Assembly (NCBI GenBank): GCA_016748015.1
Contig: JAAOMT010000183.1
Location: 574,787-638,786, forward strand
Length of the DNA: 64,000 nucleotides
Source of the DNA: Geosiphon pyriformis uo1
Taxonomy: Eukaryota > Fungi > Glomeromycota
Direction of reading: 5' to 3'
The stretch's first letter is position 1. Each line of letters begins with the position of its first letter. The notes beneath the pieces are model-generated. The model did no database searches. It was given only the letters and a program-made list of their open reading frames with translations, and was not told the DNA's origin. This document shows, piece by piece, positions 840 through 58,607 of the stretch. The position numbers and the translations under genes were made by a program.

Positions 840-1470
840 CACTTAAATACAAAGATTGCAACAAGAAACTTTTATCAATGAGAGCATGTATTTCTTCAGA
901 AGAGGAATATGAAACTCATATCTGTTACTTTTGCAAAGCATGCCATAGAGAACGATTTGGATCTCCAAAAAGAAGTGGAAAATAGAACAATACACCTTGC
1001 CTTACATATGGAAATATGTTACCAGAAAAATGCAACTGGATTGATGTTGCAATAAGAGGAGGAGTATGTGATTAAACCTGTCAATATGTTCTATCAATTT
1101 CGGAAAAAGTCAGAAGAGGAACACCATTTGATGCAGCATACAACAGTGCTCTTAATAAACTTTACCACTACCCTCATGATGCTGAAATGATTTTTGACCT
1201 AGCAATGGCATTGATTAATAAAGCCACCCAAGAAGATGTTTGCCAAATGAAAGAAGCTGAATACATTGAGTATACTATAGAATTAGCTGGATTTGATTAT
1301 GAAGATAAAGTAGAAACCTACCACCAAATTGCAAGCCACACATATCCGACCAAAGAAGCTCAAATTCAACAATTAAAGCAAATAAACATTCAATTGTGTG
1401 AAGAATGTGTTATGTCTTGTGATGACCAATGGTGTTTAGAATGTTATGCTCTTAGCATTCCTTTGCCAGA
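840..1470 (+). other. Cys-rich putative Zn-binding domain inserted between PR and dUTPase (element A)
   Basis: CYFCKAC, the CLTCG-equivalent, CxxTCQY and CEECVMSCDDQWCLEC motifs. Homologous segments are present in B, C, D, E and F. Confidence 0.75.
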
Positions 1471-1599
1471 TGAGAATGATGAAAATAAAATCGAATTTGG
1501 AGTATTTGAACTAGTAGAAAAACTACCAACCACCCCCATTTATCTTCTTAAAAAGCAACTACCTCTACAACTTAAATATTTCAACAACTATGGCCAAGG

Positions 1600-1996
1600 A
1601 ATCAGACCAGAAAAAGCACATGAAATTGATACTGGATATGACCTAAGATATCCAGAAAAAGATACTTTGGTTCTTCAACCAAAGTCTTTGATGAAAATTA
1701 ATCTCAAAATTGCTCTTAAAATTCTACCTGGAGCAATGATTCAAATTGTGTCCAGATCATCATTGGCAAGCAAAAGAATTAATGTTAAAGGAGGAGTTAT
1801 AGATGCAGGATACACTGAAGACATTGCCATCATGTTGCAAAATGAAACAGACAAACCATTCAAGATTGAACATGCTAAAAAAATTGCTCAAGCAATTTAC
1901 TTACCCTTAATTAATATTTCGGGTCTACAATCAGTTAACAACAGAGAACAATTGGGAAAAAGTGAAAGAGGAACTCAAGGTTTTGGTTCAACTGGA
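1600..1996 (+). other. dut: dUTPase domain within A pol
   Basis: All five trimeric-dUTPase motifs are recognisable: DTGYDL, SRSSLASK, GGVIDAGYT, KIAQAI, SERGTQGFGSTG. Confidence 0.93.
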
Positions 1997-3911
1997 CAAT
2001 TTACAGTTCCAGTAAACATAGCCCTTAAAATACAAAATAAATTTCATCAGATTCTTCAACTTCTCCAACCAATTACTATTTCATCTTTTGGAGAATATCA
2101 TGAAATTTATGCTTGCTCAAAACCCACTACTACTCAACAAATTTTTGAATCCAATGAACAAATCAGTTTGAAGCATGAAATCTCAATTTCAAACGTTTAT
2201 ATTTTCAAAGGAATGAGAAAATTTCGAGTTACATTCTACAATCCCAATAATTACCCTATTGTCTTATTAAACAAATTAGAGATTGGAATCATACACAGCA
2301 ATATTTTTCAAGATGAAAACCCTCAAATTGTCTCTAATTTTATCGAAATTGTAAGACACACTCTACTCCCAAATCCAAATATTATTTCCACTACTGAAAA
2401 CTACCATCTTTTAGAAGAAAAACTCTTTTGTATTAACATAAGTTCCTTAGAATCTCAACAACAAAAACAATTGAAACAATTGATAGCTGAATTTGCAGAT
2501 ATATTTGCAAAAGACAACAATGATCTGGGAAAAACAAATATGGTTTAACATCAGATCTATACAGGAGATGCTCCACCAAAATGTCAGCAAGCTTACAGAA
2601 TGCCATCTGCCAGCCACCAATTTATCAGAGAAGATGTTCAAAGAATGCTCAATAATAGATTGATTCAACCATCAAGAAGTCTTTGGGTCTCACCAGTAGT
2701 TCTTGTCAAAAAGAAAAATGGAAAAATCAGATTTTGTGTTGACTATCGCCAATTGAACAGTGTGACAATTAGAGATGCTTACCTTCTTCCAAGAATTGAT
2801 AACATGCTAGATGCTCTAAGAAAAGCCAAGTTCTTCTCAACTTTAGACTTGGAAAGTGGATACTGGCAAGTCGAAATGGACCCAAAAGACCAACCCAAAA
2901 CAGCATTTATTACTCAGGGAAGAAACTATGAGTTTAATGTTATGTCTTTTGGACTCTGCAATGCACCAGCAATATTTCAGTGACTTATGAATGTTGTATA
3001 TGAAGGGCTCTTGTGGCAATCAGTAGTTGTTTATCTTGATAATACTGATGTATACTTACCAAGCTTTAAAGCCCATTTCATTCACCTGCAAGAAGTTTTT
3101 CAATGATTATGGAAAGCAGGATTAAAGTTAAACATTGAAAAATGTCACTTTGGAAAAACAAGCTTGATCTTTCTTGGACACATAGTTAGTAAAGATGGAA
3201 TCAAACCAAATCCAGGAACAATCAGTGTTGTCAAAAACTTTCAAACCCCCAGAAATACCACAGAACTAAGAGGATTTGTAGGATTAGCCTCTTACTATTG
3301 AAAATTTATAAAAGAATTCTCAGAAATTGCCAAACCACTTAATTATCTTACCAACAAAAACGTACTATACAAATGAACTAAAGAACAACAAAAAGCTTTT
3401 GAAACTCTCAAAACAAAATTGACAACAGCCCCAGTTCTTGTTTACCCAGACTTCAACAAACAATTCCAATTAGCCACTAATGCTTTACACATAGCATTTG
3501 GTGCCATTTTATCACAATTGGATGAAAATGGCCAGGAACAAGTTATCGTCTATGCCAGTAGAACACTCAAGCCAACAGAACTCAAATATGGCTCAACTGA
3601 ATTAGAAGCCGCTGCAGTTATCTGGGCTCTCAAATACTTTCAACAATACCTAAAGAATGGAAAAAAATTTGACATAATAACTGACAATATTGGCCTCAAA
3701 TGGCTTAATAAAAAGAAAACTGAACAAAGTGCCAAACAGTCTCAATGGAATGACTTTCTAGCAGACTACAGATACATTGTACATCACAAACCAGAAAAAC
3801 TACACACCAATGTTAATAGCCTTTCAAGAATGAGACAATATTAATACCAACATCAATACCAACAAAACACCAACAAACTTAACAGCAGAACAAACAACAA
3901 AATCAATAACA

Positions 3912-5297
3912 ATAGATCCAGAAAACTACAACAACATCACAAACTATTTGGAAACTCTCACCATGCCAGAAAATTGGTTTCCAAGTGAAAAACATCAATT
4001 ACAACACCAATCCAAACAATATTTTATACACCATAACAAAATCTATTACAAAAATCGTAAAAACCCAAACCAACTACTCAGATTAGTACAGGAAAATGAA
4101 AAAGAAACAATTCTATACAACATGTACACAGATCTTTCTTTAGCATACTTGGAAAGAAATGGAACAATTTAAAGAACTCTTGAACATTATTTTTGGTTTC
4201 ACATGCAAAAAGACATTCAACAATATGTAGAATCTTGTGATAGTTGTCAAAAAAGAGGAGAAACTCACTCCACAGAACCTTTAAATCCAATCAAAGTTGG
4301 ACAATCTTTTGACAAAGTTGGAATTGATTTAGTCAGACCATTACCTATCACAATCCAAGAAAATCGTTATATTGCAGTTGCAATAGATTATTTCACCAAA
4401 TGGCTTGAAGCTAGAGCCATCCAAAGAGCAGATGCAAAATCAGTAGCAAATTTCATCTATAAAGACATTATTTGTAGACATGGATGTCCAATTGAACTCT
4501 TATCTGATCAAAGAACACATTTTGTGAACAACTTGATACAAGAAATTTGTAAACAATTCAATGTCAAAAGACCTCTATCATCACCTTATTATTCTCAAAC
4601 AAATGGACTTGTAGAATGTTTCAACAGAACATTGTGTGAATCTCTAGCCAAAGTCTCAACAGACTTTGAGCAGAAATAAGATATCTTTATTCCATCAGTG
4701 TTACTAGCATACAGAACATTAAAACAAGATACTATGAAACACACATCATTTGACCTTACTTATGGAAGGACAACAATATTACCAATTAATTTCACAGTAA
4801 AAACATACCCAGTACAACCAATCAATGAAAAAAATTTTCAAAAAACACTCCAAAGAAGGGCCTATACTCTTTTCAATACACTGGAAAGAAAAAGAAAGAT
4901 AGCAGCAATTTACATTGAACATTCCTAAGCTCAACAAAAAGAAAGACATGACAACAAATTACCACCCATTATCAACAAATTTAAAGTTGGAAATAACGTT
5001 TTTTTACACAGAACTAAGGCTGAAAAACAATGGAGTGAAAAATTTGAAAACAAATGGGATGAACCATTTTATATTCACGAAATTCTAGGCAATGGATCAT
5101 ACAAGTTAAGACTTGACGATAAAATACTAGCAAAAGTTGCACATGGAAACAGATTAAAACATTATCATTCCAGAAACAATCCTGAAACATTAATTCCACA
5201 AATTGGTACACATTCCCCTTTAATTAATCCTGAAGATATTCCCCAAAATTTAGAACCAATAATTATAATAGAACAACAACCAAACTTGAACACTTAA
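3912..5297 (+). pseudogene. A integrase, in a reading frame separate from RT-RNase H
   Basis: CDSCQ Zn motif; DDE core (VGIDLV, LLSDQ, QTNGLVE); GPY/F-like WDEPFYIHEILGNGSYKL; ends LEPIIIIEQQPNLNT-TAA. No chromodomain. Contains internal stops. Confidence 0.9.
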
Positions 5298-5455
5298 ATT
5301 TTACAATAATTCTTTAATAAAAAACACAAAGACAAAAAATAATAAATAATAACAAAAAAAAAAAAAAAAACACCTAAACCCAAAAAAAAATAAAAACCCC
5401 ATATCCCAAAAATAATTTTCTTTATTCTTCCTTTTCATAATTAGTCAATTTTATC

Positions 5456-6163
5456 ATGATTATTCTCCGAAATATTCAACAAATATCCCAAAAGTTAATG
5501 TTAGCCTTAAAAACACTTTCTGATTTATCCATAATGATTAATAGAAGTCAAATTAATAAAATTCAGAAAAAAACCACAGCCCCAATAGTAAATTATTTAC
5601 AGAACCATCACCCCTATAGAAGAAAAACAAGAAGTCACTTTGAAAATAGGTTATCAAGACTTTTGAAACAAGCACTAGAAGAAAATTTTTTAATTGCCCC
5701 TATTGACATTTCACCAAATGCTACAATGCAACAAAAACTTCTACTACTTATTAATGAACAGAACAATAAACACACCCTTATCTATAAATACTTTCATATT
5801 GGAAAGACACTTTATGAACGAAAACTGGAACTTGAAACAACAAATCTCATTCTTAAAGCTATACAAAAACAAATTCATAATGAATTCAAAACAGCAGCTG
5901 GACCAACAAATACTCACTACAAACTTAGAGCAGCTTTTAGACTCTATGATTTGTTTAATACTTGTAAAAATGTTCTACAAAATTCAATACTGCAACCAAT
6001 AAAAATCCAATACATTGGCAAACTCACAGAACTGAAATTTCAACAATTTTCAGACCAGATTACTTCAATTATTTTGGATTACTATCTTAATATTACAGAT
6101 AGTACTTGGACTTTGACAGAGCTCAGTTTTGAGGAGGAGATTATGTTACCAATAGAATTTTAG
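5456..6163 (+). CDS. A ORF3, 235-aa protein of unknown function, running through the PPT into the LTR
   Basis: Uninterrupted ORF with ATG; homologs occupy the same position in F, C and H. Confidence 0.8.
   Translation: MIILRNIQQISQKLMLALKTLSDLSIMINRSQINKIQKKTTAPIVNYLQNHHPYRRKTRSHFENRLSRLLKQALEENFLIAPIDISPNATMQQKLLLLINEQNNKHTLIYKYFHIGKTLYERKLELETTNLILKAIQKQIHNEFKTAAGPTNTHYKLRAAFRLYDLFNTCKNVLQNSILQPIKIQYIGKLTELKFQQFSDQITSIILDYYLNITDSTWTLTELSFEEEIMLPIEF
6131..6140 (+). promoter_or_regulatory. Polypurine tract of A
   Basis: GAGGAGGAGA lies 3 nt upstream of the LTR start TGTTAC. Confidence 0.85.
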
Positions 6164-7138
6164 CTATTAATTAGCATAAAATTACTCTTATAATTCCTAT
6201 AATTAATTAGTATATTAATATCATTTATTATTTAATCAATTATTACATATTACAATTCAATTAAATAATCCAATTAGTATAACAAAAAGTAGGATGATCA
6301 AATTACACAATATCCTGAACTTTGTAATATTCAAAAATTTGCCAAAATTTACAGAAATTTGCCAAAATTTATATGAAATTTGCCAAAATTTATAGAAATT
6401 TGCCAAAATTATAAATAGTTCACCCAAATTAATCAATAGTTCAGCAAAACAACTTGTAGTCTATCAAAATGTATCTTTAGTTTGCCAAAATTTGAGCAAA
6501 GAGAAAAAGTGCAAGTTCATAGACTAGTACTACAACAAGTTGTATAAAAAAAGAGCTTTTTTTTTCAAGAAAATATATCTTATTTTAGATTTATCACTTA
6601 GAACCGTTCCTATACACACAAAAAAAAAAATATTAAATAATTCAAAAAACCAAATTCTTTAATTATTGCACTTAGAAAATCCCCAAAACCCAACTAACAT
6701 TTCGAAATTGATTAGCTACCAATTTCAGTAAACTGTTAGTGACTCCAGGCCTGGATAGAAAACGTTTTCCTTGATAAAATTCTATTTCTTTTACATTTCT
6801 TTTATTTTCTTTTCTTTTTTTATTACAATCATTAGGGTAGCCTACAGACAAGATTCCTGTAGAAGAATTGATTTTCACAGCAAAGTAACTACACATTTTT
6901 AGTGAACTTCCAGATGAGCAATTTCTGAGAAAGAATTGACATTTACTACAATGTAACTACATAAAGTAACCAGCAAGAAATTGGCCATTCCACTTATAAG
7001 CCCAGCAGTTCAAATTATAAGAGATAATTTGAAGATAAATTCAGTTATTGGAGGTTCAACTACTTCTAGAAAACGTGAATTTGCAACCAACAGATATTTA
7101 CAACATTCAAGAAAAGAGACCAAAAACCTTTGGTAACA
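6144..7138 (+). repeat. 3' LTR of A (995 bp)
   Basis: Perfect 8-bp terminal inverted repeat TGTTACCA...TGGTAACA; similar to the LTRs of E and F. Confidence 0.93.
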
Positions 7139-10100
7139 CTGTCCAGATGTTTAACAGCTCATCTCCAGACAGCATCTATGGGCATTTCTTTTCTTACCCA
7201 GTCACTTATGAAAATTATGTATTGACACAATTTGTTACATGTTTCTCCTCACCCAGAAATGTCATTCTACATTTCTTCATCCAGAAGAGTTTCTCCACAA
7301 GCCAAGCATAATTCATTGTCTCATTTCCCAACCCGTTTTGGCCTTCCAAAGCATTCAATGACACATGGGTGGCAGTAAAATTTTGTTGTCGAAGTGTATT
7401 CCTTATTATCACCACAACAAGTGTCCATTGACAACAATTTCTTGTTGCAATTGATGCATACCAGTTTGGATTAATGATAGGTAGACTGTTGTGGTGGAGT
7501 GTAGGTGGCTGGAATATAAGTGTTGTTGACTTGAATGGTGTCTTTTTCTTTCCCTTTCTCTTTGTCTTTTCCTTTATCTTCTTCTCAATCCCAATTTGAT
7601 GTCAGTTGGTTGTTGTTATTGTTGGTCCATGTTAGATCGTCAGTTTCCCAGGTAAGTTTTTCTCTTTGTTTTCCTTTTTTTGGCTTGTCCCATGATAGTA
7701 TTGGCGGCAGCTCATTGTGGTCTGCTTTAGCTTATGACACTTGATAGGCTTCCCAAGTAGGTTTCTTCTTCTTTTCTTCGAATTTGATAAATGGTGTTGT
7801 CAAGTTGGTGGTCTTAAAATGGCCACATGTGGTGGATACACATGTGTGTTAACTGTTTTGGCTCAGTTGGAGCTCCTACATTGTTCAGTCCAGTATGGCA
7901 TTGGTTTTAGATAACCAGTTATTTCCTACTAATGCCTGATATTGGGTTGCTTCCATCACTAAGATTTTGATGAGAATAATAATGCCATTGACTTTAAAAA
8001 AAAAGTCATCAATCTTACCAATGAGAGTTTTGGTTGCTCCATCAGCAGTTATAATTCTGGCACTGGCAGCATAATCAACTTGGTGACCTAATTGGTTCAT
8101 GAGTTGTTTTGTAATGATGCTGCCAGCTGATCCATTATCTAGGATTAGTTTGATGGAGTGGCCATCAACTTTGGCATCAGTGTACATGACAGTAATAGGT
8201 TTTTCTTCCAGAGCGGCTCCACTAAATAATGGCATGGTTGACAGTTCTTCAAGTTCAAACGGAAAGCTGGCAGAATATTGCTGATAAGTGTTGAGTATTG
8301 GTTGGATTCCAGGTTATTAAATTGAGCATCTTCTGGGATAACTAGTAAACTTAAATAGTTCTGGGAATTTGGGTGTTGGGCATACCCAGTGCCCAAATTC
8401 CATTGTCGAGATCCTGCTGATTGTGTGGAAGAACTGGAGATCAGTTGATAGACTACCATCGATGATTTCCAGCTTTGTTGTGTCAATCTCGGCCTTTGGG
8501 TTCTATTTTAAGGTAAGTTCTGTGACAGTGTTTGAATTTGTTGGGGCTGATATATTACTTAAGGCTGTGGCTGTGGCTGATAAATTGCTGGTGTCATCAG
8601 TTGATAAATTGGCATTTGATATACTGGTGGTTAATAAGATGGCTGTTGCATCATAGGTAAGTAATTTTGATGATATGGTTCTGAATTTGGTGGGTTATTC
8701 GGAATTTGAAACTGGCAATCAGGGTTTTGATTTTGATTTTCCAATCATTAGTTATTTAAGTGATGGCAGCAATTGATTTGTAGGTGTCTTTGTCTACCAC
8801 AATAGTGGCAAACACGCATTTTCTGTTGTCACTATTGATTGGTCACCAATAATAGATGCAACTGATTCTGGAAGTAATTCACATTTCTGGAATTATTGCA
8901 TTATTGTGGTGGTTGATAAATTGTGCAATTGTCAGCTAAGTATCTCTCTAATTTCTGATTGATAGAATTGCTAAATTGTTTCAATTTGGAATCCAATTCA
9001 GATGATTTATTCATTACTAGATTAACTGCTTAGGTGTAGTTGGCTTCTAATTCAGTGGCTTCAAAATCTTTGGCATTTGTGATGGCTGCTTGCAGATTGA
9101 CAAGATGCATTGGATGTATGTGTTGCTGAATACTGCTGCATAATCTGCAAATAAACTGATTTAGGATTTGGGCCACTGTGAAATAATTAACGTTGATGGC
9201 TTGGATCTGATGTAGATTCCTGTGGAAGCATCCTAAGTAAGTAGTAACTGCTTCATTTTCTCCTTGTTTGATGATAGTGAAGGTGTTTGCTAGCCTGTTA
9301 ATGCTGTTATTGTTACTAAAGTATCTTAAGAACTCAATTTTAAATGCATTAAAATCTTTGGGTTTGTTGACTAGGCTTTGGTACCATGAATCAACAGTAT
9401 CCTGGAGAAAATATGGGATGGCTTGCATGGCTTTGGCATTATTTCATCCATTAGCTGCAATGACTTTCTCCATATTATTTAGCCATACTTGGGCATCATC
9501 CTCTTTGCCAGTAAATTTTTCGAGTTTGGCTATTGGTGCATATGCCATTGGATCTAAGTTGGGTTGTGGTGGTTGTTGAAGTGGTACTAGTAACTGTTGA
9601 ATCTGTTGGTGTGGTTGTTGTAGTGGCTGGCCAATCAGTTCAACTAGTGGTGAGTTAATGACAATAACAAAAAGTAGGTTTGGTTGATTAATTAAATTGG
9701 GATTTTGATTGTTCTAATTGTGCTGCATTTGAAAATTCGGAGTTTCAATTTCCAGATTTTTTAAATTTAGATTTTGCTGAGTCTGAAAGTTTGGGGTTTC
9801 AATTTCCAGATTTTCAGTGATCAGGTTCTGGTAAGTAAATTCTTGATCTTCAGATTCTTTTTCCTCTTTTTTCTGGTCTTCTTCTAATTCCATTACTTCC
9901 TAGGGACTTGCAGTTCCAAAATCTGGTTGGGGTAGTGGAGATTGAAGTCCTGATGGCATAGACAATTGAGACTTAAATCCTTCGAAATACATGCCATATG
10001 ATCCTAGAAGATCTTTTTTTTTTGTTTACTCTGAAATAGAAATCATCCAAAAGTTGATGTTGTGTTTAATGTGGACATGCCTGTAATATTGATGGCACTT

Positions 10101-10531
10101 CTGGGTGTATAATAATATGATAGATTAGTTGGTGATTCAACTCTTGTTTTCTTCCAAGTGGGTGGTTGTATTCTTTGAGGTGTTATTGCTGGTGTTTGTA
10201 ATTTTTCTTTGCCTTTGTTTGCATAGGTAATTGGATATCTTTGTTGAGTGTGAATTTCAATTTCTTTATTGATTTTAGTAAGGATTGCTGTGAAATTGTA
10301 ATTTGTTGGTAGGCTGGTATTCTGGATTAATTTGTTGTAGAAGTTTCTTCTGGTTGAGTCAGTTTCTACTGGTACTCCTAGTAAATATGAGATTCTCTCG
10401 TGGATGTAGAAATTAAAAGCTAATTCTGCTGATAAGTGATTGTCGGTTAATCCTAAATGTTGACAGTAGTGTTGAAATAAGGATTTTGTTAATCCTAAAT
10501 GGTTTGTCCCTATTTCTTCAGATTCTGCCAC
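7139..10531 (-). pseudogene. gag: B gag-protease polyprotein remnant
   Basis: Capsid-like MQAIPYFLQDTVDSWYQSL and IKQGENEAVTTY; CCHC knuckle ~8770-8815; protease 7885-8235. Confidence 0.88.
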
Positions 10532-10576
10532 TGTTTGAATGGGTGTTGTTGGTGCTGGTTTTCTGTAGGATTATAT

Positions 10577-10592
10577 CTCACAAGAAGCACCA
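10577..10592 (-). promoter_or_regulatory. Primer-binding site of B
   Basis: TGGTGCTTCTTGTGAG, 2 nt after the LTR end; complementary to a tRNA 3' end in ACCA. Confidence 0.8.
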
Positions 10593-10594
10593 AA

Positions 10595-11373
10595 TCTTAT
10601 AGATGATTATTTGGGGTCTCAAATCAAATAACAAATTCATAACTTGGTGCTCAATATTTTGACAATGCTGGTGATACTAGTATGTTGGTTGTATCTGAAG
10701 GTTTTAGAGTTGAGTCCTTTGTATAATGAACAGAGATTTAATGATGATGTAGTTGGTTGGTGAGTTGGGTTCCCAATTTCTGTCTTCAGCTTGGTGGCTG
10801 GTTTATTCTGGCATTCGTGTTCTTCTTGTAAGCTATCTGTTAATATATATATAATTTTACCCTTATTTCTGGGTCTTTTACCAGGCTATCTGTGACGTCA
10901 ATTACTTAGCACTTTAATCCTTAATCAGTTAATATACAACAATAAAATTAAGAAAAAAAAATAAAATAAAAATAAAAAAATAAGCCAAGACAATGTGCAA
11001 GTTAGTATCCGTCAATAGCCATGATCAAGAGCTATTGTTCCAGTGTGGTTAAGTATTGATTACTATCAACATAAAGTATTGATAGTGAAGAGTGAATTTG
11101 GATGATAAATGATTTATTTATTTAATATTTGTAAATAGAAGATTTCTAACTAAAAGATTCTGCTCTTTTTACTTCTAATGCTATTGTTATATATACATAA
11201 TTGATGTTCTATGAGATTGTTCACATTCCCAAGTGATGTGTTATGATTCCTTAAGCAATGTGCTGTGATTTCTATCATTGCTTTACATTGCTGAGCAATG
11301 TGCTCATGTGCTACATACTATTTGCTTATTGGTTTACTATTTTCCTATATCTGTTTTCATTTTATAAGTAACA
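10595..11373 (-). repeat. 5' LTR of B (779 bp)
   Basis: Starts TGTTAC on the minus strand; aligns with both LTRs of C. Confidence 0.88.
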
Positions 11374-12939: not shown

Positions 12940-13079
12940 TTAAATTTTTAAAATAAATATTTATTTTGTAATTAATTAATTGATTTTAAACTTAATAAAT
13001 AAATTAATATATTTTCTTAAAAAAAAACTTTTTTTATATATTTTATAATTAGTTATATGATTTATTAGTCTATAAGTTA

Positions 13080-13440
13080 ATATTATAAGTTAATAAATAA
13101 ATTTAAAGATTTTAATAGATCTAAAAATTTTGGTAATTAAGTTTTTTGTATAATAAACAAAAATTTAAATAATAATTAATAATATTTGATTTTTTTAGCA
13201 TAATAATTAATTTATTTTGGTATTTTTTATTTTTTTAATAAGTAATTTAATTATTAATAAGTAATTTAATTATTAATAAGTTAATTTTATACTTATTCTT
13301 ATATTTTTTATTAAATAATTTTAAATATTGTAATTTTAATACTTTTTTTAATTAATTAATTAAAACAACAAAAAAAAATAAAAAAAATAAAAATTAATAT
13401 TCTATTAATAATTATAATTAAAAATTATTGTTAAATTTTT
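13080..13440 (-). repeat. Hypermutated relic of a B/C/G-family LTR
   Basis: Collinear with the B and G LTRs after C>T/G>A conversion, e.g. ttaatattctattaataattataattaaaaattattg vs ttagtatccgtcaatagccatgatcaagagctattg. Confidence 0.65.
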
Positions 13441-13741
13441 TAAATAAATACTATTTGTATTTATTATTTTTAATAAACTAAGTATTAAAAAAAAGTAATT
13501 TTAATAAAATAAATAATAAGTTATATATATTAATAATTTTAATAAGTAATTTAATTATAAATAATTATTATGTTTTTTTTAAAAAAAAATTTGCTTTAAG
13601 TATTAATTTTTTATTATTATGTATTTAATAAATAAAGCCCAACTACTATCTAGTACATAGAACCAAACTAAGTGGATTAAAATAAATACAGTTCACACAC
13701 ATGTTACATGTAACTAGCTATTCAAACCAACTAAAACTATA

Positions 13742-35917: not shown

Positions 35918-36807
35918 TGTTACAAATAATTATTTGGGGTCTCAAGTCAAATAACAAATTTGTAACTTGGTGCTTAATTGGTCTTATGGGTTTGATATTT
36001 GAAGGTTTTGTAGTGGAGTTCTTTGTATAATAAACAGAGATTTAATGACAATATAGTTGGTTGGTAAGTTGTTTTCCCAATTTCTGTCTTTAGTGTAGTG
36101 ATCAGTTTATTCTGACAGTTGTGCCCTTCTAGTAAGCTATCTGTTAATATATATATGATTCTACTCTTATTTCTGAGTCTTTTACCAGGCTATCTATGAT
36201 GTTAATAACTCAGTACTTTAATCCCTAATCAATTAGTATACAACAATAAAATCAAAGAAAAGAAAATAAAAGAAATAAAAAAATGAGTCAAGGCAATATA
36301 CAAGTTAGTATTCCATCAATAGCCATGATCAAGAGCTATTGTTCCAGTATAATTAAGTGTTAATGACTATCAATATAAAGTGTTGATAGTGAAAAGTAAA
36401 TATTAGGATATTGAATAATTATTTTATTAATATTTTCAATGTGGAAGGTGGCTTAGATTAAATCTAAACTCAGAGGTCTCTAACTAAAGGATTCTGCCTT
36501 TTCTATTTCTAATGTTACTGCTATATATACATAATTGATGTTCTATGAGATCACTTATATTCCCAAGTGATGTGCTATGATTTCTTGAGCAATGCTCACA
36601 TTGCTGAGCAATGTGCTCTAATTTTCTAATATCACTCCACATTGCTGAGCAATGTGTCATGTTTTCTGATATTGCTCTATATTGCAGAGCAATGTGCTGT
36701 AATTTCTGTTATTGCTCTACATTTCTGAGCAATGTACTCATGTACTAAATACTATTCACTTATTGGTTTACTATTTTCCCTATATCTGTTTCTTTTTATA
36801 AGTAATA
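35918..36807 (-). repeat. 3' LTR of C (890 bp)
   Basis: Direct repeat of 45223-46112; preceded by PPT AAAAAAGAGAAGATAA (36808-36823). Confidence 0.93.
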
Positions 36808-36821
36808 TTATCTTCTCTTTT

Positions 36822-37457
36822 TTAATATTGAGCTCCATCAAAATCTTCATTCTAAATTAGCTTTAATACTTCTTTTTCTAGTATTGTTTGTTCGACTTTA
36901 TTTTTTACATCTTTTATTTGTACATTGTTCATTTGTTCCCATTGGTTAATGGTTATGGTTTCCATGTTCAAGTATAACAGTATTTTTGGATAGTTCCGAA
37001 ATATGTTATGTAATCAGTACATTGTCTTAACATGTAGTGTTGAATTCATTTTCTTTCCAATAAATTTTTCAATTTGTTGGATTATGTCTTGGTTGAATAT
37101 TCTCTTGGATTTGTCAATATACAACTCTTGAATATTCAACTTTTGACCTAACTGATAGTAGCAATATGATATTAGAAGTCGTTTTGTCTATTGCTTCCAA
37201 TTTTTTTTTATAAGCTCTTTTGTTGGTACCATAATAGGTATTTTTCCAAAAGTGTTCTTTACTTTTTTTATTAAGTTATCTGTTCAGTTTTTATCATTCT
37301 TTGGTAGTTACTAATATAATGTATTCTTTGTCTTTCTTTGGGTGTTTTGATAACAAATTATTTGGTTGTTAATAATAATTTTCATGTCTAACTGTTGTTG
37401 ACTTAAGGCCTGGAACAATTGTTGAGCTATAGTGTGAATATAATCTGGTATTTCCAT
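36822..37457 (-). pseudogene. C ORF3 (212 codons, in-frame stops; not in ORF track)
   Basis: Manual translation: MEIPDYIHTIAQQLFQAL...SYCYYQLGQKL...KFIGKKMNSTLHVKTMY*LHNIFRNYPKIL; homologous to ORF3 of A and H. Confidence 0.8.
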
Positions 37458-37511
37458 CTTTCTTGGTTGCTTTTGTCACATGTACTATGTCTTTATATAC
37501 TTTTTGGTTGT

Positions 37512-38894
37512 TTAATTTGACGTGTTTGGTTCAATAACTATGATTGGTTCTAGATCTTGTAGAATTTTATCTGGTTGAACTAGTATTCTTTGTACTTCCA
37601 GTTGTGGAATATTATTGGTGGATGATGATGCTACCTAATAATATGGTTTCAGTCAGTCACCATGTGTTGCTTTGGCTAAGATTTTGTTGTCCCATCTTAA
37701 TTTATAAGCTCCATTTCCTAGAATTTCTTCTATGTAAAATGGTCCATCCTATTTAGGGTCAAATTTTCCATTCCATTGTTTTTCTACTTTGGTACAATGT
37801 AATAGTACTTTGTCTCCAATTTTGAATTCAACTGGTTTATCCAGTAGTTGGTTATCATGTCATTTTTTTTGCTTTTCTTGTGACTTCTAAATGTTATTAG
37901 CTGCTTTTCATTATCTGTTTTCTAGTGTTTCTATTAGATTATATGTTCTTTTTAACAATGTTTTTTGGAAATTATCTTCTGTTATTGGTTCAGTTGGATA
38001 TGTATTGACCTCTATTTCAACTGGTAATGTTGCTATTCTACCATATACCAATTCAAATGGTATTGCTTGTGTGGTATTTTGTTTTATTGTTTGATAAGCA
38101 AATAATACTGATGGTATAAACAAATCCCATTCATCTTGGTTTTCTTGGCTAATTTTGGCTATTGTTTCACACAGTGTTTTGTTGAACTTTTTAACTAATC
38201 CATTTGTTTGTGGATGGTATAGTGATGATAATGGTTTTTTTATTCCAAATCTTTGGCTTAATTCTGCTAATGTTTTATTTACAAAGTGAGTTCTTTGATC
38301 TGATAATAATTCTTTTGGACATCTGTGTTGACAAATCAGATCTTGATGAATGAATTTGGCAACAGATTCTGCATCTGCTCTTTGAATGGCTTTTGCTTCT
38401 GGCCATTTTGTGAGATAGTCTATAACTACTGCAATATATCTGTTGCCTCTACTGGTAATTGTTAATGGTTTGATTAAGTCAATTCCAATGCAATTAAATG
38501 ATTGTCTTACTTTAATTGGTTTTAATGGTTCACTGGGTTTTGTTCTATCTTTTCTCTGACAAGCATCACAATTTTGAACATATTGGATGATGTCTGGATA
38601 CATTGATGGCCAATAATATCTTTTTCTAGTTCTTTCCATGGTTGCTTCTTTGTGAAAGTATTCTGCTGTTGGATCTGAGTGCATGTTGAATAATATTGTT
38701 TCTTTCTCTGGTTTTGTGATTACTCTGGTTGGTTGATCTGAATTTTTTCTGTTCTTTCAGTAAAGTTTATTTTAATGGTTGATAAAATATTTTGATTGTT
38801 GTTTTATGTTTCTTTGTTCTTTTTGAGATAATTTCTCCTTGAACAATTGGGTATTTATATAATGTTGAAGTTGTTGGTATTTTTGTATATTCAT
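37512..38894 (-). pseudogene. C integrase with its own ATG
   Basis: MNIQKYQQLQHYINT...MHSDPTA...CDACQ...IGIDLI...LLSDQ...HPQTNGLV...DGPFYIEE...LEPIIVIEPNTSN*. Confidence 0.9.
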
Positions 38895-38924
38895 CTTTTG
38901 TTATATTTTTGAGTTGAAATGTTT

Positions 38925-41900
38925 TTAGATTTGTCTTATTCATGATAATCTGTTGGTATTTCCATTGTCTTTTCCCTTTTTGTAATGTACTGTATAGTTA
39001 AATAGTGAAAGTTCTATTTTTCATCTGGCATGGCGATTGTTTGCAAATTTCTGTTTCTGAATTGAAGTCAATCCTTTATGATCTGTCTACACATCAAACT
39101 TTTGACTCAAGTATTTTTTCTATTTCATGACTGCCCAATAGATTGCTAAATGTTCTAGTGCTGGAATTCCATAGTTCTTTTCAGCTAGATTTAAGCTTCT
39201 ACTGGCATAAGCTACTGGATGCTTTCTTCCATTGGGTCTTTTCTAAGATAATACTGCTCCTAATGCTTGACCAAATGTATTAGTTGTAATTATAAATGGC
39301 TTGTTATAATCCGAATAGATCAGTATTGGGGCTTAAATAAGTTTTCTTCTCAATGTATCAAAAGCTTTTTGTTGCGTTTCATTCCATTCATATTTGGTGT
39401 TCTTTGTTTGAAGTTGGTGTAGTGGTTGAGCTATTTTAGAAAAGTCTTTAATAAAGCAGCAGTAGTATCTAGCAAATCCCAAAAATGCTCTCAATTCTGT
39501 GAGATTATTTGGTACTGGAAAGTTCTTGACAATCTCAATTTTGTTTAGATCCATTTTAATTCCATTTTTGCTTATCACATGTCCCAAAAATTTGAGTTCA
39601 GTTTTCTTAAAGAAATACTTGTTTGCATTCAGCTTCAATTCTGCTCTTCTTAATCTTTCAAATACTTGTTGAAGATGATGTAAATAGTCATCAAATGTCT
39701 TGAAAAACACATTTGTGTCATCTAAGTATATGACAACTGATTCCATAGTAGCCCAGTATATACAATTTCTATGAGCTGTTGGAATGTTGCTAGTACATTC
39801 ATCAAGCCAAATGGCATTACTTCAAACTCAAAATTTCCCTTTCTTGTAGTAAATGCTGTTTTCTCTTTGTTAGCTGGGTTCATGACTACTTGCTAGTAAC
39901 TGCTATTTAAATCCAATATTGAGAACCATTTCTTTTTTCTAAAAGCATCAAACAGCTCTTGAATCTTTGGAGTTAGGTAGCTGTCTCCTTTTGTTACTCC
40001 ATTCAGTTTCCAGTAGTCTATACAAAAACGGATTTTCCCATTTTTCTTATAGACTAGTACCATTGGTAATAACCATGGGCTCATTGATGATTGAACTAGT
40101 CCATTGTCTAATATTTGATTGATTTCTTGATAAATGATCTTATGGCTGGCTGGTAATACTCTGTATGCTCTTTGTTTAATTGGCATTGTATCTCCAGTCT
40201 TAATTTGATGCTGAATTATGTTGGTTCTGCCAAATTCATTTTTACTGGCAAAAATGTCATTGAATTTGTTAAGTAACATTTTGAGTTGCATTTGTTAGAG
40301 TGGGTCTAGATTCCCTATGTTTATCTGTTCCAATTGTTCCAGTTGGAGCAGATAACATTTGCTTTGTCCATAAATGATTTGTGATGTGATGTCCATATAT
40401 TCACAAAGTTGTGGAAAATCTGGAATGTAGTTTGGTAATTGATCTTCAACTTCAGTGGTTAAATATCCAATGATGATTCCCTTTGATATTTTGATGACTT
40501 TTTCAGTTGTGTTGTAGATGAGAATTTTGATGTTTTTGAGACTGTTGACTGATATGTAAAGATTAGTGAGTCCAATCTCTCCTGATTCATAAATAGTGGC
40601 TTCTGCTTCAAACAATTAAGCTTGATCATTCACTTCCCTTTTTATGGCTAACATATACTGGTCATATAGTGAAATAGAAATCAGTTGACAGGTTGAGATA
40701 ATTTCTTCTTTGTCAACAATTTTTTTCTCTGCCATATTAACTAATATGTCTATTCTACCTGTTGATCCAAATCCTTGTATTCCTCTTGCTGTTATACCTA
40801 GTTCTTCCCTCTTTCTCACTGAAACTAACTGAGCTATTTTTACCAGAAGTAAGAATATTGCCTGTGCTATCTTTTCATTTGGCTCTATAATATAGGTCTT
40901 TTTTGAGTCATTTTGTAGCATGACAATGATATTCTCTATGTATTCCACATTAATTATTCCTCTTCTAATATTGATTCCTTTTTTCGCTAAACTACTTCTA
41001 AATGCTAATTGAACTATGGTTGTTGCTAGAATTTCCAGAGCTATTTTGAAATCAACACATGTGCACGAATTTGGTTCCAATTGGATGGCTTCTTTCTCCA
41101 GATATCTCAGATTAAACCCTGTATTGTTATTATGTGCATGTTCTGGCATGATACCTTTATTATTGTCACTATACCATTTGAGTTCCTGTTCTTTAGAGAA
41201 ATCAGAAAGTACAATGTATATTTCTGGGTTTGAATCGGAGTTTGAATCATTGATATTTTTGTTGTCATATTAAGCAGAGCTAGAACCAGTGTTTTTATTG
41301 TTATCATTGTTGAAGTTTGAATTGGGATTGAAAACTGATTCTAATTTTGATGCACAGCTGTTGATTGGTTTCTCTTCTTCTGGGATTGTGTAGATTATAC
41401 AGATTGGTAGATTGTAAATAAGGTTACACTCATTACAATATTGAAAGTTACAGAGAATTAAGCAATGTTAATATAATTAAGTATTCAACTGCTCTAGACA
41501 CTGTTTTTGTTCTTCTCTGATGGGTGCTAATCACTGGTAATGTTTGTGGAATTCTTTTGGATTGTTCTCAATGTTGCCAAAGACATTGAAAGTTTGGATG
41601 TATTTGGGTTCAGAAAGAAACAGAGGGTTGTTTTTGATTTCTAATAGTTTACTGGTTGTCACATCTTCTGTTTTTGCATATGCCATTCTTCAGAGTTTAT
41701 GTTTGTTGTGGGAATATCTTTTCAATCATTGCAATGCTTTTTTCCAGGCGTCATTAATTGGTGTTCCTTTGTGTACCCAGTTGTTTATCAGGATGATATA
41801 CTGGTATGTTTTGTTGCACATTCCTCTGTGCCCAAAAATGTCATTCCATATTCCTTCATCAGGTAAGATAGTTCTACATGCAAAACAGAGTTGGTTATCC

Positions 41901-44900
41901 CATTTTCCTTGTTGTTTTGGTCATCCAAAGCACTTTATGATGCATAGATGGCAGTAGAATCTTGTGGCTGTGGAGTATTCTTTGTCATCGTCACAGCATA
42001 CATCTATTAATGACAATTTCTTGTCACAATTGATGCATACCAATTTTGGTCGGCAATAGCCAGATGGCTGTAGTAAAGTGTAAGCATATGGACTATAAGT
42101 GTTGTTGGTGGGTGTTGTTTCCTTTTCTTTTTCTTTTTCCTTTCCTTTATTATTATCTTCTTTCCATTCCCAAGTTAGTTTGTTTTAATCATTGTCAATT
42201 TTCCAGGCTTGATCAGTATTCCAAGTAAGTTCAGTCTTCTTCTGTTTTTCTTTGCTGTTGTCATTTCAAGAAAAGATAGGCAGTAGTTTGTTGTCTTCAT
42301 TGGCCCAGGACACTTGATAAGCTTCCAAGGTAGGTTTCTCTTTCTCTTCTTTCTCGAACTCAATAAGTGGTACTGGCATATTGGTCAGTTTGAAGTGATC
42401 ACATGTGGCTGGTACATGTGTGTGTCAACTGTTCTGGCTAATTTAAAGCTCTTGTATATTCCAATCAAGCAATGCATTGGTTTTAAATAGCCAATCATTA
42501 CCAACAAATACTTGGTACTGAGTTGCTTCTATTACAAGAACTTTGATGGATATGATAATGCTGTTGATTTCAATAGGTAAGTCATTTATTTCGCTGATCA
42601 GAGTCTTTGTTACTCTATTAGCTGTTATGATTTTGGCACCAGCAGTTTGATCAACTCGGTGACCTAATTGGTCTATGAGTTGTTTTGTAATGATACTGCC
42701 AGCTGATCTGCTGTCTAGAATTATTTTGATGGGGTGGCCATTGACTTTGGCATCAGTGTACATGGCAGTAATGGGTTTTTCCTTAAGAGCAGTTCCACTA
42801 AACAGCAGTGTGGTTGACAGTTTCTCGAGTTCAAATGAGAAGATAGTGTCCAGTGATTTGTTCTCAGTAATGGTAGCTAGGGGAATATTGCTGGTAAGTG
42901 TTAATTGTTGGTTGGTTTCTAGATTATTGGGTTGGATGTCATCTGGGGTAATCAGAAGACTTAAATAGTTCTGAGAATTTGGGTTTTGGGTGTACTCAGT
43001 GCCCAAATTCTGTTGTCGAGATTCTGCTGGTAATGTGGAAGAACTGGAGATTGGTTAATAGACTACCATTGACAATCTTCAGCTTTGTTGGGTTAATCTT
43101 GGTCTTTGGGTTCCGTTTTAAGGTAAGTTCTGTGGCAGTGCTTGAATTTGTTGGGGCTGATAGATTACCAAAGGCTGTGACTAATAAATAAATTGTGACT
43201 GTGGCTAATAAATTACTGGTATTGTTGGTTGATAAATTGGTGCTTGATATACTGGTAGTTGATAAAGTGGCAGCTGCATTATAGGTAAGTAATTCTGATA
43301 ATATGGCTCTGAGTTTGGTGGGTTATTTGGAATTTAGAACTGGTGATCAGAGTTTCAATATTGATTTCCCGATTATTGGTTATTTAAGCAACAGTAGCAG
43401 TCAATTTGTAGATGTTCTTGTTTATCACAATAGTAACAAACATGCATCTCCTGTTGCCACTGTTGATTGGTCAACAATGATGGACACAATTGATTTTGGA
43501 AACAATTTGCATTTTCTTGATTATTGCATCATTGTGGAGGTTGATAGATTACATGATTGTCAGCTAAGTATCCCACTAATTTCTGATTTATTAATATGCT
43601 GAATTGCTTCAATTTGGAATCCAAGTCAGATGATCCATTCATTACTAGATTTACTGCTTGGGTGTGGTTGGCTTCTAATTCAGTAGCTTCAAAATCTCTG
43701 GCATTTGTAATGGCTGCTTGTAGATTAATGGGATGTCTTGGATGTACATGTTGCAGGATACTACTGCATAATCCATGAATAAACTGATTCAGGATTTGGG
43801 CCACTGTCAAATAATTGGCGTTGATGGCTTGGATTTGGTGTAGATTCCTGTGGAAGCGTCCTAAGTAAGTAGTGACTGCTTCAGTTTCTCCTTGCTTGAT
43901 GGTGGTAAAAATGTTTGCCAATCAGTTAATGCTATTATTATTACTAAAATATTGTAGGAATGCAAGCTTGAATGCATTGAAATTTTGGAGTTTGTTGGCT
44001 AGGCTTTGATACCATGAGTTGGTGGTATTTTGGAGAAAGTAAGAGATGGCTTGGAGGGCTTTTGTGTTATTCTATCTATTTGCTGTGATGGTCTTTTCAA
44101 TGTCATTGAGCCATATTTGGGTGTTGTCTTCTTTGCCAGTGAACTTTTCTAGTTTTGCTATTGGGGCATAGGCCATTGGATCTAAGTTTAGTTGTTGTTG
44201 TTGTGATGGTTGTAGTTATTGTTGTGGCTGTTGAAACGGCTGTTGAAGTGGCTGTTGGAGTTGTTAAAGTGGTGATTAAATAGGTTGCTGAAAGAGTGGC
44301 TGTGAGATTGGTTCAAGTATAGATTCAATTGGTGGCTGGTCGATGATGATTACTAAAGGTGAGTTTCCCTAATTAATTAATTCGGAGTTTAAATTATTTG
44401 GAGTTTGCTGGATTTGAATGTTTGGGGTTTCAATTTCTAAATTCTCTGTAATCGGATTCTGGTAAGTAAATTTCTGATCTTCAGCTTCTTTTTCTTCCTC
44501 CTCTTCTGATTCTGTTATTTTCCAGGGACTTGCGTTTTCAAAATCTGGTTAAGGTAGCAGTGATTGGAAACCTAATGGCACTGGCAATCATGATTTAAAT
44601 TCTTCAAAATATTTGCCATATGGTCCTAGTAACTCTGCTCTTCTTTGTTTACTTTGGAATGGGAATTGTCCAAAGGTTGATGTCATGTTTGATGTGGATG
44701 TGTCTGTTAATGATATATTGATGACACTTCCAGGCATATAATAATATGATGGATTGATGAGTGATTCAACTCAGGTTTTTTTCCAATTGGGTGGTTGTAT
44801 TTGTTTTAGTGTTACTGCTGAGATTTGCAATCTTCCTTTGCCTTTGTCTGCATAGATGATGGGGAATTGTTGTTGTGTATATTTTTTAATGGTTTGATTG

Positions 44901-45160
44901 ATTTCCCTAATAATTGATGCAAAACTGTAGTTTCTTGGTAAGCTGGTATGTTGAAATAATTCTGTATAGAAGTTTTCCCTTGCTGATTTAATATTAACTG
45001 TTCCTCCTAAGCAATCTGTGATTTTATCATTGACATAGAAGTTAAAGGCTGATTCTGCTGGGAAATAATTATTGTTCAATCTTAATTGTTGACTGTACTG
45101 TTGAAACAAGAATTTGGCAAATTCTAAATGGTTTGTCCCTATGATTTCTGATTCTGTCAC
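38925..45160 (-). pseudogene. pol: C gag-PR-Cys-dUTPase-RT-RNase H polyprotein
   Basis: Gag capsid and CCHC; PR IILDSRSAGSII; dUTPase TGFNLRY, RSSLAKKG, KIAQAIF, ARGIQGFGSTG (~40755-41150); RT YLDD; RNase H ending IRQI-TAA. Confidence 0.93.
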
Positions 45161-45204
45161 TTTTGGATGATTGTTGATGGTGCTGGTTCTCTGTAAGATT
45201 ATAT

Positions 45205-45220
45205 CTCACAGAAAGCACCA
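45205..45220 (-). promoter_or_regulatory. Primer-binding site of C
   Basis: TGGTGCTTTCTGTGAG, 2 nt after the 5' LTR. Confidence 0.85.
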
Positions 45221-45222
45221 AA

Positions 45223-46112
45223 TGTTATAGATGATTATTTGGGGTCTCAAGTCAAATAACAAATCTGTAACTTGGTACTTGGTTGGTCTTATGGGTTTGA
45301 TATCTAAAGGTTTTGTAGTGGAATTTTTTGTATAATGGACAGAAATTTAATAACAATGTAGTTGGTTGGTAAGTTGTTTTCTCAATTTTTGTTTTCAGCA
45401 TGGTGGCTGGTTTATTTTGGCAGTTGTGTCCTTCTGGTAAGCTATTCATTAATATATATATGATTCTACTTTTATTTCTGGGTCTTTTATCAAGCTATCC
45501 ATGACATTAATAACTTAGTGCTTTAATTCCTAATCAATTAGTATACAACAATAAAATCAAAGAAAAGAAAATAAAAGAAATAAAAAAATGAGCCAAGGCA
45601 ATGCACAAGTTAGTATTCCGTCAATAGCCATGATCAAGAGCTATTGTTCTAGTATGGTTAAGTGTCAATAACTATTAACATGAAGTGTTGATGGTAAAAA
45701 GTGAATATTGGGATATTGAATAATTATTTTATTAATATTTTCAATGTGGAAGGTGGCTTAGATTAAATCTAAACTTAGAGGTCTCTAACTAAAAAATTCT
45801 GTCTTTTCTACTTTTAATGTTACTGCTATATATACATAATTGATGTTCTATGAGATTGTTCATATTCTCAAGTAATGTGCTATGATTTTTTGAACAATGC
45901 TCACATTGCTGAGCAATGTGCCTTAATTTTCTAACATTATTTCACATTGCTGAGCAATGTGTCATGTTTTCTGATATTGCTTTATATTGCAAAGCAATGT
46001 GTTGTGATTTTTGTCATTGCTCTACATTTCTGAGCAATGTCCTCACATGCTAAATACTATTCACTTATTGGTCTACTATTTTCACTATATCTGTTTCTTT
46101 TTATGAATAATA
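45223..46112 (-). repeat. 5' LTR of C (890 bp)
   Basis: Direct repeat of 35918-36807. Confidence 0.93.
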
Positions 46113-49050: not shown

Positions 49051-49102
<52 letters not shown>

Positions 49103-49782: not shown

Positions 49783-50304
49783 TTAGAATTGAGCTCTTGT
49801 GAAATTGTATGTATTTGTTCCTATGTCTTTATTCATGTAATGTTTGATGATTGTATTGAGTACTGTTTTTTGTAGGTTTTCGAACTGTCAATTGGTAATT
49901 TGTCCTATGTTGTTAACTGTTATCGTCTTTATTGATCTATACACCAGTATATTTGGACAATGTTGGAAAGCAGCGTATAGTCAGTATGCTGCTTTATAAT
50001 GTAGAGTCAGTTTGTTTTTTCCTATGAACTTTTTTACTTGTTGTATTGCTTCTTTGTTGAATGTTTTCTGGCTGAAGTCTTTATATGGTGTTTTCAAGTC
50101 AAGCTGTTTTCCAATTTTGTAGAACCAATATGCTGGAGGAAGTTTTTTTTTCCATTTCTGGACATTATTAGGTGCCCACTCCCCTGTTTTGGGGAGTTTG
50201 GTTTCATGAGCTAAAGCTTTTTTTATTTCTTCAAGCTTGGTGACCAAGTATCTTCTTTTATAACCTTTTTCTTATTCTTTGCCTCTTTTTTTTCCACCTT
50301 CCAC
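49783..50304 (-). pseudogene. H ORF3, C-terminal part
   Basis: AYWFYKIGKQL...KKFIGKNKLTLHYKAAY*LYAAFQHCPNIL...IGQIT. Confidence 0.75.
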
Positions 50305-51263: not shown

Positions 51264-51309
51264 TTTGATGCTTTCTCACAAAAATAACACAGTGACAACA
51301 ACTTCAAAA

Positions 51310-54300: not shown

Positions 54301-55304
54301 CTCCAAATGAAAGAAGCTGAATATATCGAATATACCTTAGAATTAGCTGAATTCAATTATGAAAATGAAGTAGAAGTATACTATTAAATCACAAGTTATA
54401 TCTATCCGACCAAAAAAGCTCAAGCTTAACGGCTAGAGCAAATAAACATTAAATTATATAAGGAATGCATAATGCCTTGTGATGAACAATGGTGTTCTGA
54501 ATGCTATGCCCTTAACATTTCATTACCAAGTGAAAGTAACAAATATAAAATCGAATTTGGTGAACTTAAAGCAACAGAAAAAATTGAAATAACACCTGTC
54601 TATCTTATAGAAAGTCAATCTGCTTTACAGCTTAAATACTTCAACAACAATGGACAAAGAATAAAGCCTGAAAAAGCACATGAAATTGATGCTGGATATG
54701 ATCTACGATATCCAGGAAAAGATACTTTGGTTCTTCAACCAAATTTTCTTACCAAGATCAACCTCAAAATTGCCCTCGAAATCCCACCAGGAGCAATGGT
54801 TCAAATCGCTTCATGATCATCATTGGCAAGCAAAGGAATCAATATTAGAGGAAAAATCATAGATGCTGGATATACAGAAGACATTACAATCATGTTACAA
54901 AATGAAACCAATAAACTTTTTCAGATTGAACATACTGAAAAAATTGCTCAAGCTATTTATTTACTTTTAATTAATATTTCAGGTTTATAATTAATCAGTC
55001 AAAGAGAACAATTGAGAAAAAGTGAAAGAGGAACCAAAGATTTTGGTTCAACTGGATAATTTACAGTTCCAGTAAACATAGCTCTTAACAAACAAAATGA
55101 ATCTTACCAGATTCTACGACTTCTACAACCAATTATTATTTCACCTTTTGGAGAACATCCAGAAATCTACATCTGTCCAAAGCCAATAACCACACAACAA
55201 ATTTTTGAGTCCAACGAACAAATTTGCTTGGAACATAATATCTCGATTCTAAATATTTACATTCTAGAAGGAACAAAAAAAGTTCGAGTTACTTTTTACA
55301 ACCC
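51310..55304 (+). pseudogene. gag: E gag-PR-Cys-dUTPase, single reading frame with stops
   Basis: ORF pieces at 51265, 52297, 53101 and 54472 share one frame; YIAKIPEFTGE, CHYCEIPGHWKRDC (52717-52758), LILDSKSARSII, DAGYDLRY. Confidence 0.9.
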
Positions 55305-55449
55305 TTGAAAATTTAATACATTGGAAAGTTCACAGAACTGGAATTTCAAAAATTTTCAGACCAAATTTCTTCAATAATCTTGAATTACTATCTGGAAATT
55401 ACAGACAGTACTTGGACTTCGACGGAGCTCAGTCTTGAGGAGGAGGTTA

Positions 55450-55875
55450 TGTTACCAGACAAAATTAGAGATATTGCTTAGCATGAAATTACCCTTATAA
55501 TTCTTATCATTTCAAATTATTACTTATTACATTAGCAAAATATCCGAAATTATCATTTAATTAATAATCCAATTTGTACATAACACAAATGTAACCTAAT
55601 TGCGATGATTAATCATGCAATACCCCGAACTATGTAATATTCAAAAAGTTTGTAGAAATTTGTAGAAATTTGTCAAAATAATTGATAGTTCACCAAAATA
55701 TCTAATGGTTCGCAGAAATAACTTGTAGTTCACCAAGATGTATCTTTAGTTCAGCAAAATTGTAAAAAAGAGCAAGTTCAAGTTCATAGAATAGTGTTAT
55801 AACAAGTTGTATAAAAGAAGAGCTTCTTTCTTCGAAAAAATGTATCTTACTTTAGATTTATTACTTAGAACCATT
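55450..55875 (+). repeat. 3' LTR of E (partial)
   Basis: Matches 50305-50730. Confidence 0.9.
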
Positions 55876-57899: not shown

Positions 57900-58607
57900 C
57901 TAAAATTCTACTGGTAACATAATCTTCTCTTCAAGACTGAGCTCTGTCGAAGTCCAAGTACTATCTGTAATATTAAGATAGTAATCCAAAATAATTGAAG
58001 TAATCTGGTCTGAAAATTGTTGAAATTTCAGTTCTGTGAGTTTGCCAATATATTGGACTTTTATTGGTTGCAGTATTGGATTTTGTAGAACATTTTCACA
58101 AGTATTAAACAAATCATAGAGTCTAAAAGCTGCTCTAAGTTTATAGCAAGTGTTTGTTGGTCCAGCTGCTGTTTTGAATTCATTGTGGATTTGTTTTTGT
58201 ATAGCTTCAGGAGTGAGATTTGTTGCTTCAAGTTCTATTTTTCATTCATAAAGTGTCTTTCCAATGTGAAAGTATTTATAGATAGAGATGTGTTCATTGT
58301 TTTGTTCATTGAGAAGTAGTAAAAATTTTTGTTGCATTGTAGCATTTGGTGGAATGTCAATAAGGGCAATTAAAAGATTTTCTTCTAATGCTTGCTTCAA
58401 AAGTTTTGGTAACCTATTTTCAGAGTAACTTCTTGTTTTTCTTCTATAAGAGTGATAGTTCTGTGAATAATTTGCTATTGAGGCTGTGATTTCTTTCTGA
58501 ATGTAATTAATTTGACTTCCATTAATCGTTATGGATAAGTCAGAAAGTGTTTTCAAGGCTAACATTAACTTTTGGGATATTTGTTGAATATTTCGGGAAA
58601 TAATCAT
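57900..58607 (-). pseudogene. F ORF3, one internal stop (CGA>TGA at 58242-58244)
   Basis: Same length as, and closely similar to, A ORF3. Confidence 0.85.

Follow-up and report, generated by a model that had tools for sequence, protein, structure and literature searches.

Additional open reading frames are common in LTR retrotransposons, and few have been defined in fungi. Among retroviruses, foamy-virus Tas and other 3' accessory genes abut or overlap the 3' LTR, and Rev and Rem, like CERV of the Cer1 element, serve the export or packaging of unspliced genomic RNA. The reading frame analysed here, ORF3 of a group of LTR elements in the fungus Geosiphon pyriformis, resembles Tas-like genes in that a small soluble product is encoded at the 3' end, overlaps U3 and possibly acts on the LTR; no homology to Tas was found, and the likeness is one of functional analogy only.

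A 3' additional ORF is already a known kind of gene in plants (PMC11728184) and bdelloid rotifers (PMC5408684). Plant Athila/Tat elements of the Ty3/gypsy group have, downstream of pol and ahead of the 3' LTR, an additional ORF that is conserved by lineage, mostly without a recognised domain, and in some cases equipped with a nuclear localisation signal (PMC11728184). ORF3 differs from these plant genes in its fungal host, in that no sequence link to a Pfam family was found, in having no transmembrane (TM) helix, and in a frame that, in the A/G and metagenome lineages described below, reads through the polypurine tract (PPT) and stops within the LTR. The rotifer LTR retrotransposons are alike in bearing a dUTPase and a non-env ORF3; the rotifer ORF3s encode a GDSL esterase or a DEDDy exonuclease (PMC5408684), whereas the fungal ORF3 has no enzyme match. 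VANC, the anti-silencing protein of the VANDAL DNA transposons (PMC11728184), is likewise an element-encoded accessory protein, and by this analogy ORF3 could protect its own family from silencing; VANC belongs to another element class and another kingdom, and there is no sequence match. A literature search on these elements and on a DUF1016 link, with most subscription papers outside it, found no published description of the family. The ORF3 family is old and selected and appears to be undescribed, and the element families that carry it may already be included in the curated TE library of PMC11952901 or in the G. pyriformis genome papers.

ORF3 and its host elements

We analysed a stretch of 64,000 nucleotides from G. 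pyriformis uo1 (assembly GCA_016748015.1, contig JAAOMT010000183.1, positions 574,787 to 638,786 of the forward strand), hereafter the window. ORF3 copies in the window were located by tblastn and HMM searches. The features used below are as follows, with elements designated by letter.

1076..5297, + strand: pol region of A, interrupted by stops, with dUTPase, RT, RNase H, integrase and an SH3 tail; the 5' end of the element lies beyond the window
5456..6163, + strand: ORF3 of A, 235 aa without a stop; final codons and stop codon within the 3' LTR
6131..6143, + strand: polypurine tract of A, which ORF3 crosses in frame
6144..7138, + strand: 3' LTR of A (TG...CA), resembling the G LTR; 31 contigs of genomic run X1 diverge before 6144
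35918..46112, - strand: element C in full (LTR-gag-PR-dUTPase-RT-RH-IN-ORF3-LTR), with 89% identity between its LTRs and a 4-bp target duplication
36822..37457, - strand: ORF3 of C, 6 internal stops; terminal stop touches the polypurine tract
49783..50304, - strand: ORF3 of H, 3 internal stops; terminal stop touches the polypurine tract
55293..55481, + strand: 3' remnant of ORF3 in G, the internally deleted sister subfamily of A; enters the G 3' LTR at 55450
57900..58607, - strand: ORF3 of F, a member of the A family with 84% identity to A; 1 internal stop

The host elements are Ty3/gypsy LTR retrotransposons, as seen from their LTRs, polypurine tract, target duplication, gag and PR-RT-RH-IN order. 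ORF3 is a sense 3' additional ORF between integrase and the 3' LTR, common to many copies. Pfam domains run dUTPase-RT-RH-IN-SH3 and then ORF3 in A, F and C, and the ORF3 of A starts 158 bases past the end of the integrase ORF. The first-pass annotation, made from the sequence alone, had placed ORF3 at the env position of three families; the domain order bears this out for A/F and C, and for H the placement rests on other genome copies, since the H pol lies outside view (H is cut at 50304 by the G LTR). The genome-wide placement comes from fused gene models rather than from DNA: an integrase tail is fused directly 5' of the ORF3 part in 29 of 235 models, and an integrase SH3 domain occurs in 7 of the 36 H-type models.

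The same annotation had described the A copy as fully open, and 5456-6163 does translate to 235 aa without a stop. The G remnant, 80% identical to A across 54 aa, is a fifth piece additional to those it had listed. In A, F, G and the metagenome locus L001 (described below) the ORF3 frame continues across the polypurine tract to a stop within the LTR; in C and H the stop abuts the tract without read-through. The 5' part of the H ORF3 is missing through the insertion of G, whose 5' LTR begins at 50305. All five window copies (A, F, C, G and H) are dead relics of the system proposed below.

Several further observations concern the structure of these elements. A stop codon follows RNase H in A (3842-3844), at matching sites in F and C, and at 772-774 in L001, so that integrase forms a separate ORF; a Met stands shortly after this stop in L001 and C. 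In this clade pol thus seems to consist of two parts, RT-RH and an integrase that stands alone, an arrangement that would be unusual for Ty3/gypsy. All gypsy families here have a dUTPase between protease and RT (1076-2548, 40616-41269, 48434-49105 and 61801-62655). In A (5420-5444) and in F, a pyrimidine tract followed by AG, 11 bases 5' of the ORF3 ATG, has the look of a splice acceptor; no such site was evident upstream of ORF3 in C or L001.

Element G (50305-56900) has an internal deletion that joins the start of gag-PR-dUTPase to the 3' end of ORF3, and its LTRs are 99.5% alike across 426 bases, which marks it as a young non-autonomous copy inserted in the H ORF3. Immediately after the A LTR, a C-related element (7164-11371, 74% to C) holds a 5' LTR, gag and protease without pol. 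Three decayed minus-strand copies of another repeat, 64-68% alike, occupy 11419-24291, with a weak RNase H match near one of them; they are probably non-LTR retroelements. Runs of N at 48865-49050, 55876-56663 and 56867-57520 are assembly gaps that mask the upstream part of H and the right flank of G.

Homology, distribution and selection

The proposal that the A/F, C and H copies are homologous held up under profile comparison, so that the refuting outcome named for it, a lack of significant profile similarity among A, C and H, did not occur. An HMM built from A-type and annotated H-type proteins, with the window copies of C and H left out, found C from its first codon (iE 2e-16), an HMM of H-type proteins only recovered A at 2e-8, and the best non-family match in the HMM searches of the window had an iE of 0.4. 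The full-length H-type protein P0125 matches both A (BLASTP, E 4e-9) and C (E 2e-22), and the direct comparison of A with C is weak (hhalign, E 0.006, probability 6%). By sequence comparison, the N-terminus that A and C had been said to have in common is real. As for the proposed motifs HYK..AA.RLY..F..C.N.L and IG.LT, A and H agree with them, and C does so only loosely. Identity between lineages is 15-30%.

A search with the A copy gave 200 matches at E <= 0.001; among the 120 listed, all 119 named ones are G. pyriformis hypothetical proteins, and the remaining one is the window's own 145-aa gene call. All 36 matches of the H-type search are likewise from G. pyriformis. A profile search of 1.8 billion representative proteins returned 88 matches, 73 of them new, and the 30 new ones that were looked up comprise 27 G. 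pyriformis proteins, 2 metagenome proteins and 1 repeat artefact (P0207, a repeat protein, was dropped as a false family match). ORF3 copies thus account for over 200 G. pyriformis hypothetical proteins, in agreement with the earlier suggestion that a TE gave rise to an expanded set of hypothetical or orphan genes. A second suggestion, that the C-terminal half resembles a domain abundant across Glomeromycotina, gained no support from these searches: no other named fungus, Rhizophagus, Gigaspora and their allies included, was present among the matches examined. The sole hint of a wider fungal family is a Mucoromycota hypothetical-protein cluster in the ESM Atlas, whose score of 0.92 is below the recognition level of the tool and is shared by coat-protein and archaeal rows; P0125 had no named cluster there. 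We found no ORF3 relatives in viral or prokaryotic contigs, and saw no stand-alone host homologue in the search of 1.8 billion proteins.

Metagenome loci extend the family beyond this genome. Locus L001 encodes RT-RH, integrase and an intact ORF3 of 230 aa whose identity to A is about 26%; its PPT/LTR junction is the same as in A. A second ORF3 lineage is found at locus L002, 3' of an integrase-like tail and one extra ORF. This extra ORF (398-811 of L002, 137 codons stop to stop), lying between the two, has no Pfam match, and some relatives may carry a fourth gene. A tree built from 23 rows of the 50-row alignment A5 recovered five G. pyriformis lineages, and the two metagenome lineages joined A/G at 100/100, a join that is not certain because long branches meet there. 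The family comprises at least five lineages in G. pyriformis and two metagenome lineages. The pol of L001 is nearer to A/F (54-62%) than to C (50-56%), which fits an inheritance of ORF3 together with the element. LTR sequence makes up 41.2% of the G. pyriformis genome (PMC11952901).

Codon comparisons show that ORF3 is kept by purifying selection. Between the A and G copies, dN/dS is 0.18 across 54 codons (Fisher p 3e-4), and among the best-supported differences listed between the A ORF3 and a contig of run X14, 19 of 29 fall at codon position 3 (p 4e-4). Between A and F, dN/dS is 0.65 for ORF3, and three gag/pol segments give 0.43, 0.26 and 1.4, in keeping with post-insertion decay of close copies. 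The pol of A carries 5 stops in about 695 aligned codons, and at this decay rate an open frame of 235 codons is expected about 18% of the time; with the A pol dead, the open ORF3 of A is unremarkable, and it holds private substitutions absent from other copies. The CpG observed/expected ratio of the window is 0.14. In two presumed-RNA runs, matches were confined to A-rich stretches or short pieces.

The ORF3 protein and its faint likeness to DUF1016_N

ORF3 had been described as having no signal peptide or TM helix, and we found no membrane helix in any lineage tested, as judged by hydropathy only. Over 19 residues, hydropathy peaks at 1.06 in A and at 0.4-1.1 across seven proteins, and none of 96 A-type proteins of at least 200 aa reaches 1.6; ORF3 is therefore not env. 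Pfam scans of ORF3 proteins returned no env family, and fold searches against viral structures and PDB gave nothing significant.

An AlphaFold2 model from 50 sequences (pLDDT 72, pTM 0.63) predicts an N-terminal helix and beta-hairpin at low confidence, a disordered linker (residues 30-60) and an all-helical core from 61 to about 215, with pLDDT mostly 80-95. An earlier model from 22 close sequences reached pLDDT 46.8, and the viral fold search made from it was discarded as meaningless. Matches to the core were not significant (Foldseek PDB E 0.29, BFVD E 0.024, VIA best Z 5.4 of 48,161 chains), and a sequence search of solved structures with A2 gave 0 matches; an importin-5 match to the A5 profile in solved structures (E 0.14) was rejected as chance. 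PHROGs gave weak matches of unknown function that vary by lineage. A match to a characterised TE protein had been named as another refuting result, and no known fold or family was matched. Separately, 14 of 50 rows matched NCBIfam FtsQ, the best at E 7e-5 and 22 bits where the cut-off is 366; among 11 rechecked only A-type proteins matched, and the hit was set aside.

Conservation across 10 lineage representatives falls mostly on hydrophobic positions, together with K138, E145, K150, N152 and R162; N152 is the only invariant polar residue among them, and the conserved residues, as aligned, form no catalytic constellation. The pI is 9.2-9.8 in six of seven ORF3 proteins tested, and the intact metagenome ORF3s have few net basic residues beyond the linker and the 120-160 region. 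The linker contains PY in 72 of the 123 proteins that have the N-terminal motif, against an expectation of about 8%, and does so in 7 of 8 lineages, with basic residues before or after it; one lineage is without PY (0 of 7). The form [RKH]x2-5PY is found in 59 of 123, in a region with pLDDT under 50, and copy A misses the strict spacing. The consensus of the PY nuclear-import signal is R/H/K-x2-5-PY (PMC2408616), in a disordered region, and the resemblance of the linker PY/basic patch to it is a weak lead.

Within the core, P0102 aligned with DUF1016_N (PF17761) at 15.8 bits, below the Pfam cut-off of 32.8, and weak matches to this family were seen in 7 of 22 A-type proteins (best E 0.0028). 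By hhalign against a purpose-built DUF1016_N profile, residues 110-171 scored 25, whereas none of 60 block shuffles exceeded 19.9; the probability of 6.7% is above reversed and shuffled controls and drops to 1% without A-type rows. The likeness extends over 62 columns and consists of a three-helix stretch, Y..IG..., a glycine turn and a helix with an aromatic end. DUF1016 (YhcG) proteins differ in being bacterial and in the fusion of this N-terminal domain to a PD-(D/E)XK nuclease domain that ORF3 is missing, and the likeness stays below every threshold; by score, ORF3 is not a DUF1016 member. The FtsQ match, of a chance type, scores better in the same region, which indicates that weak matches there come cheaply. 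No solved relative of the YhcG N-terminal domain was found for fold comparison, and DUF1016_N is itself uncharacterised (PMC1189080). We regard it as a long shot that ORF3 is a captured HTH-like DNA-binding domain of bacterial DUF1016 ancestry, a counterpart of Tas that works as LTR transactivator or anti-silencer and that aided the rise of LTR sequence to 41% of the genome.

Candidate roles of ORF3

The first-pass annotation had suggested an accessory regulator or an anti-defence protein, and we infer a role of this general kind. The results show ORF3 to be a selected gene for a soluble protein, fixed as the third gene of a dUTPase-bearing Ty3/gypsy clade. The reading of its role that we put first, tentatively and at slightly short of an even chance, is that of an accessory regulator that works in the nucleus and binds nucleic acid. 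ORF3 would be translated from its own subgenomic RNA and imported into the nucleus through the linker PY/basic patch, and a unit of helix 133-148, turn and helix 153-167 would bind DNA, most likely at the LTR. It would act there as a transactivator or as a silencing shield in a CpG-depleted genome, and binding of ORF3 to the nucleic acid of its own element is predicted to promote expression of that element.

By analogy with Rev/Rem or Cer1 CERV, ORF3 could instead handle RNA, exporting or packaging the unspliced genomic transcript. In A, F, C and L001 integrase seemingly has its own ORF, which means that more than one RNA form is needed by the element, and both the import-signal-like patch in the linker and the pyrimidine tract with AG just before the ORF3 ATG in A and F would suit such a factor. 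Because no RNA-binding fold or family was found, and C and L001 show no evident acceptor-like site, we think this unlikely, though it deserves consideration.

A third possibility is an anti-silencing protein that binds a host RNAi, methylation or chromatin protein rather than nucleic acid. The fast divergence between lineages (down to the identities given above) and the mostly hydrophobic character of the conserved positions point in this direction, and AM fungi methylate TEs and produce TE small RNAs, as reported for Rhizophagus (10.1101/2021.03.30.436303). Yet ORF3 has no likeness to a known suppressor, and K150, N152 and R162 cluster at the start of one helix, which equally fits contact with nucleic acid; we consider this role rather improbable.

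ORF3 might also be a partner of integrase, acting in nuclear entry of the PIC or in target choice in place of a chromodomain. It adjoins the separately encoded integrase, for which Pfam shows an SH3 tail and no chromodomain, and the fold comparison lists the C-terminal domain of CHD1 as a weak row (Z 5.0, rmsd 3.1, 80 aligned). A Z of 5 is, however, within the helical-bundle background, and this explanation seems to us quite doubtful. A last reading takes ORF3 for a passenger, either a piece of host sequence picked up by the element or a frame linked to the LTR that does nothing for it, or takes copy A for a domesticated host gene. It could draw on the open frame of A beside its broken pol, but such a frame is expected by chance at the rate given above, A has private substitutions, no stand-alone host homologue was seen, and ORF3 is kept in every lineage examined and under purifying selection between subfamilies, so that on dN/dS this reading is largely refuted and highly improbable.

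For the favoured regulator, as for the other roles, intact natural copies of ORF3 exist for testing. The more than 200 hypothetical proteins derived from ORF3 bear on the idea, raised in 10.1101/2021.03.30.436303, that orphan genes of AM fungi are maybe unrecognised TE products. If it is true that an ORF3 regulator counters methylation, it would offer a testable cause of LTR expansion in this lineage.
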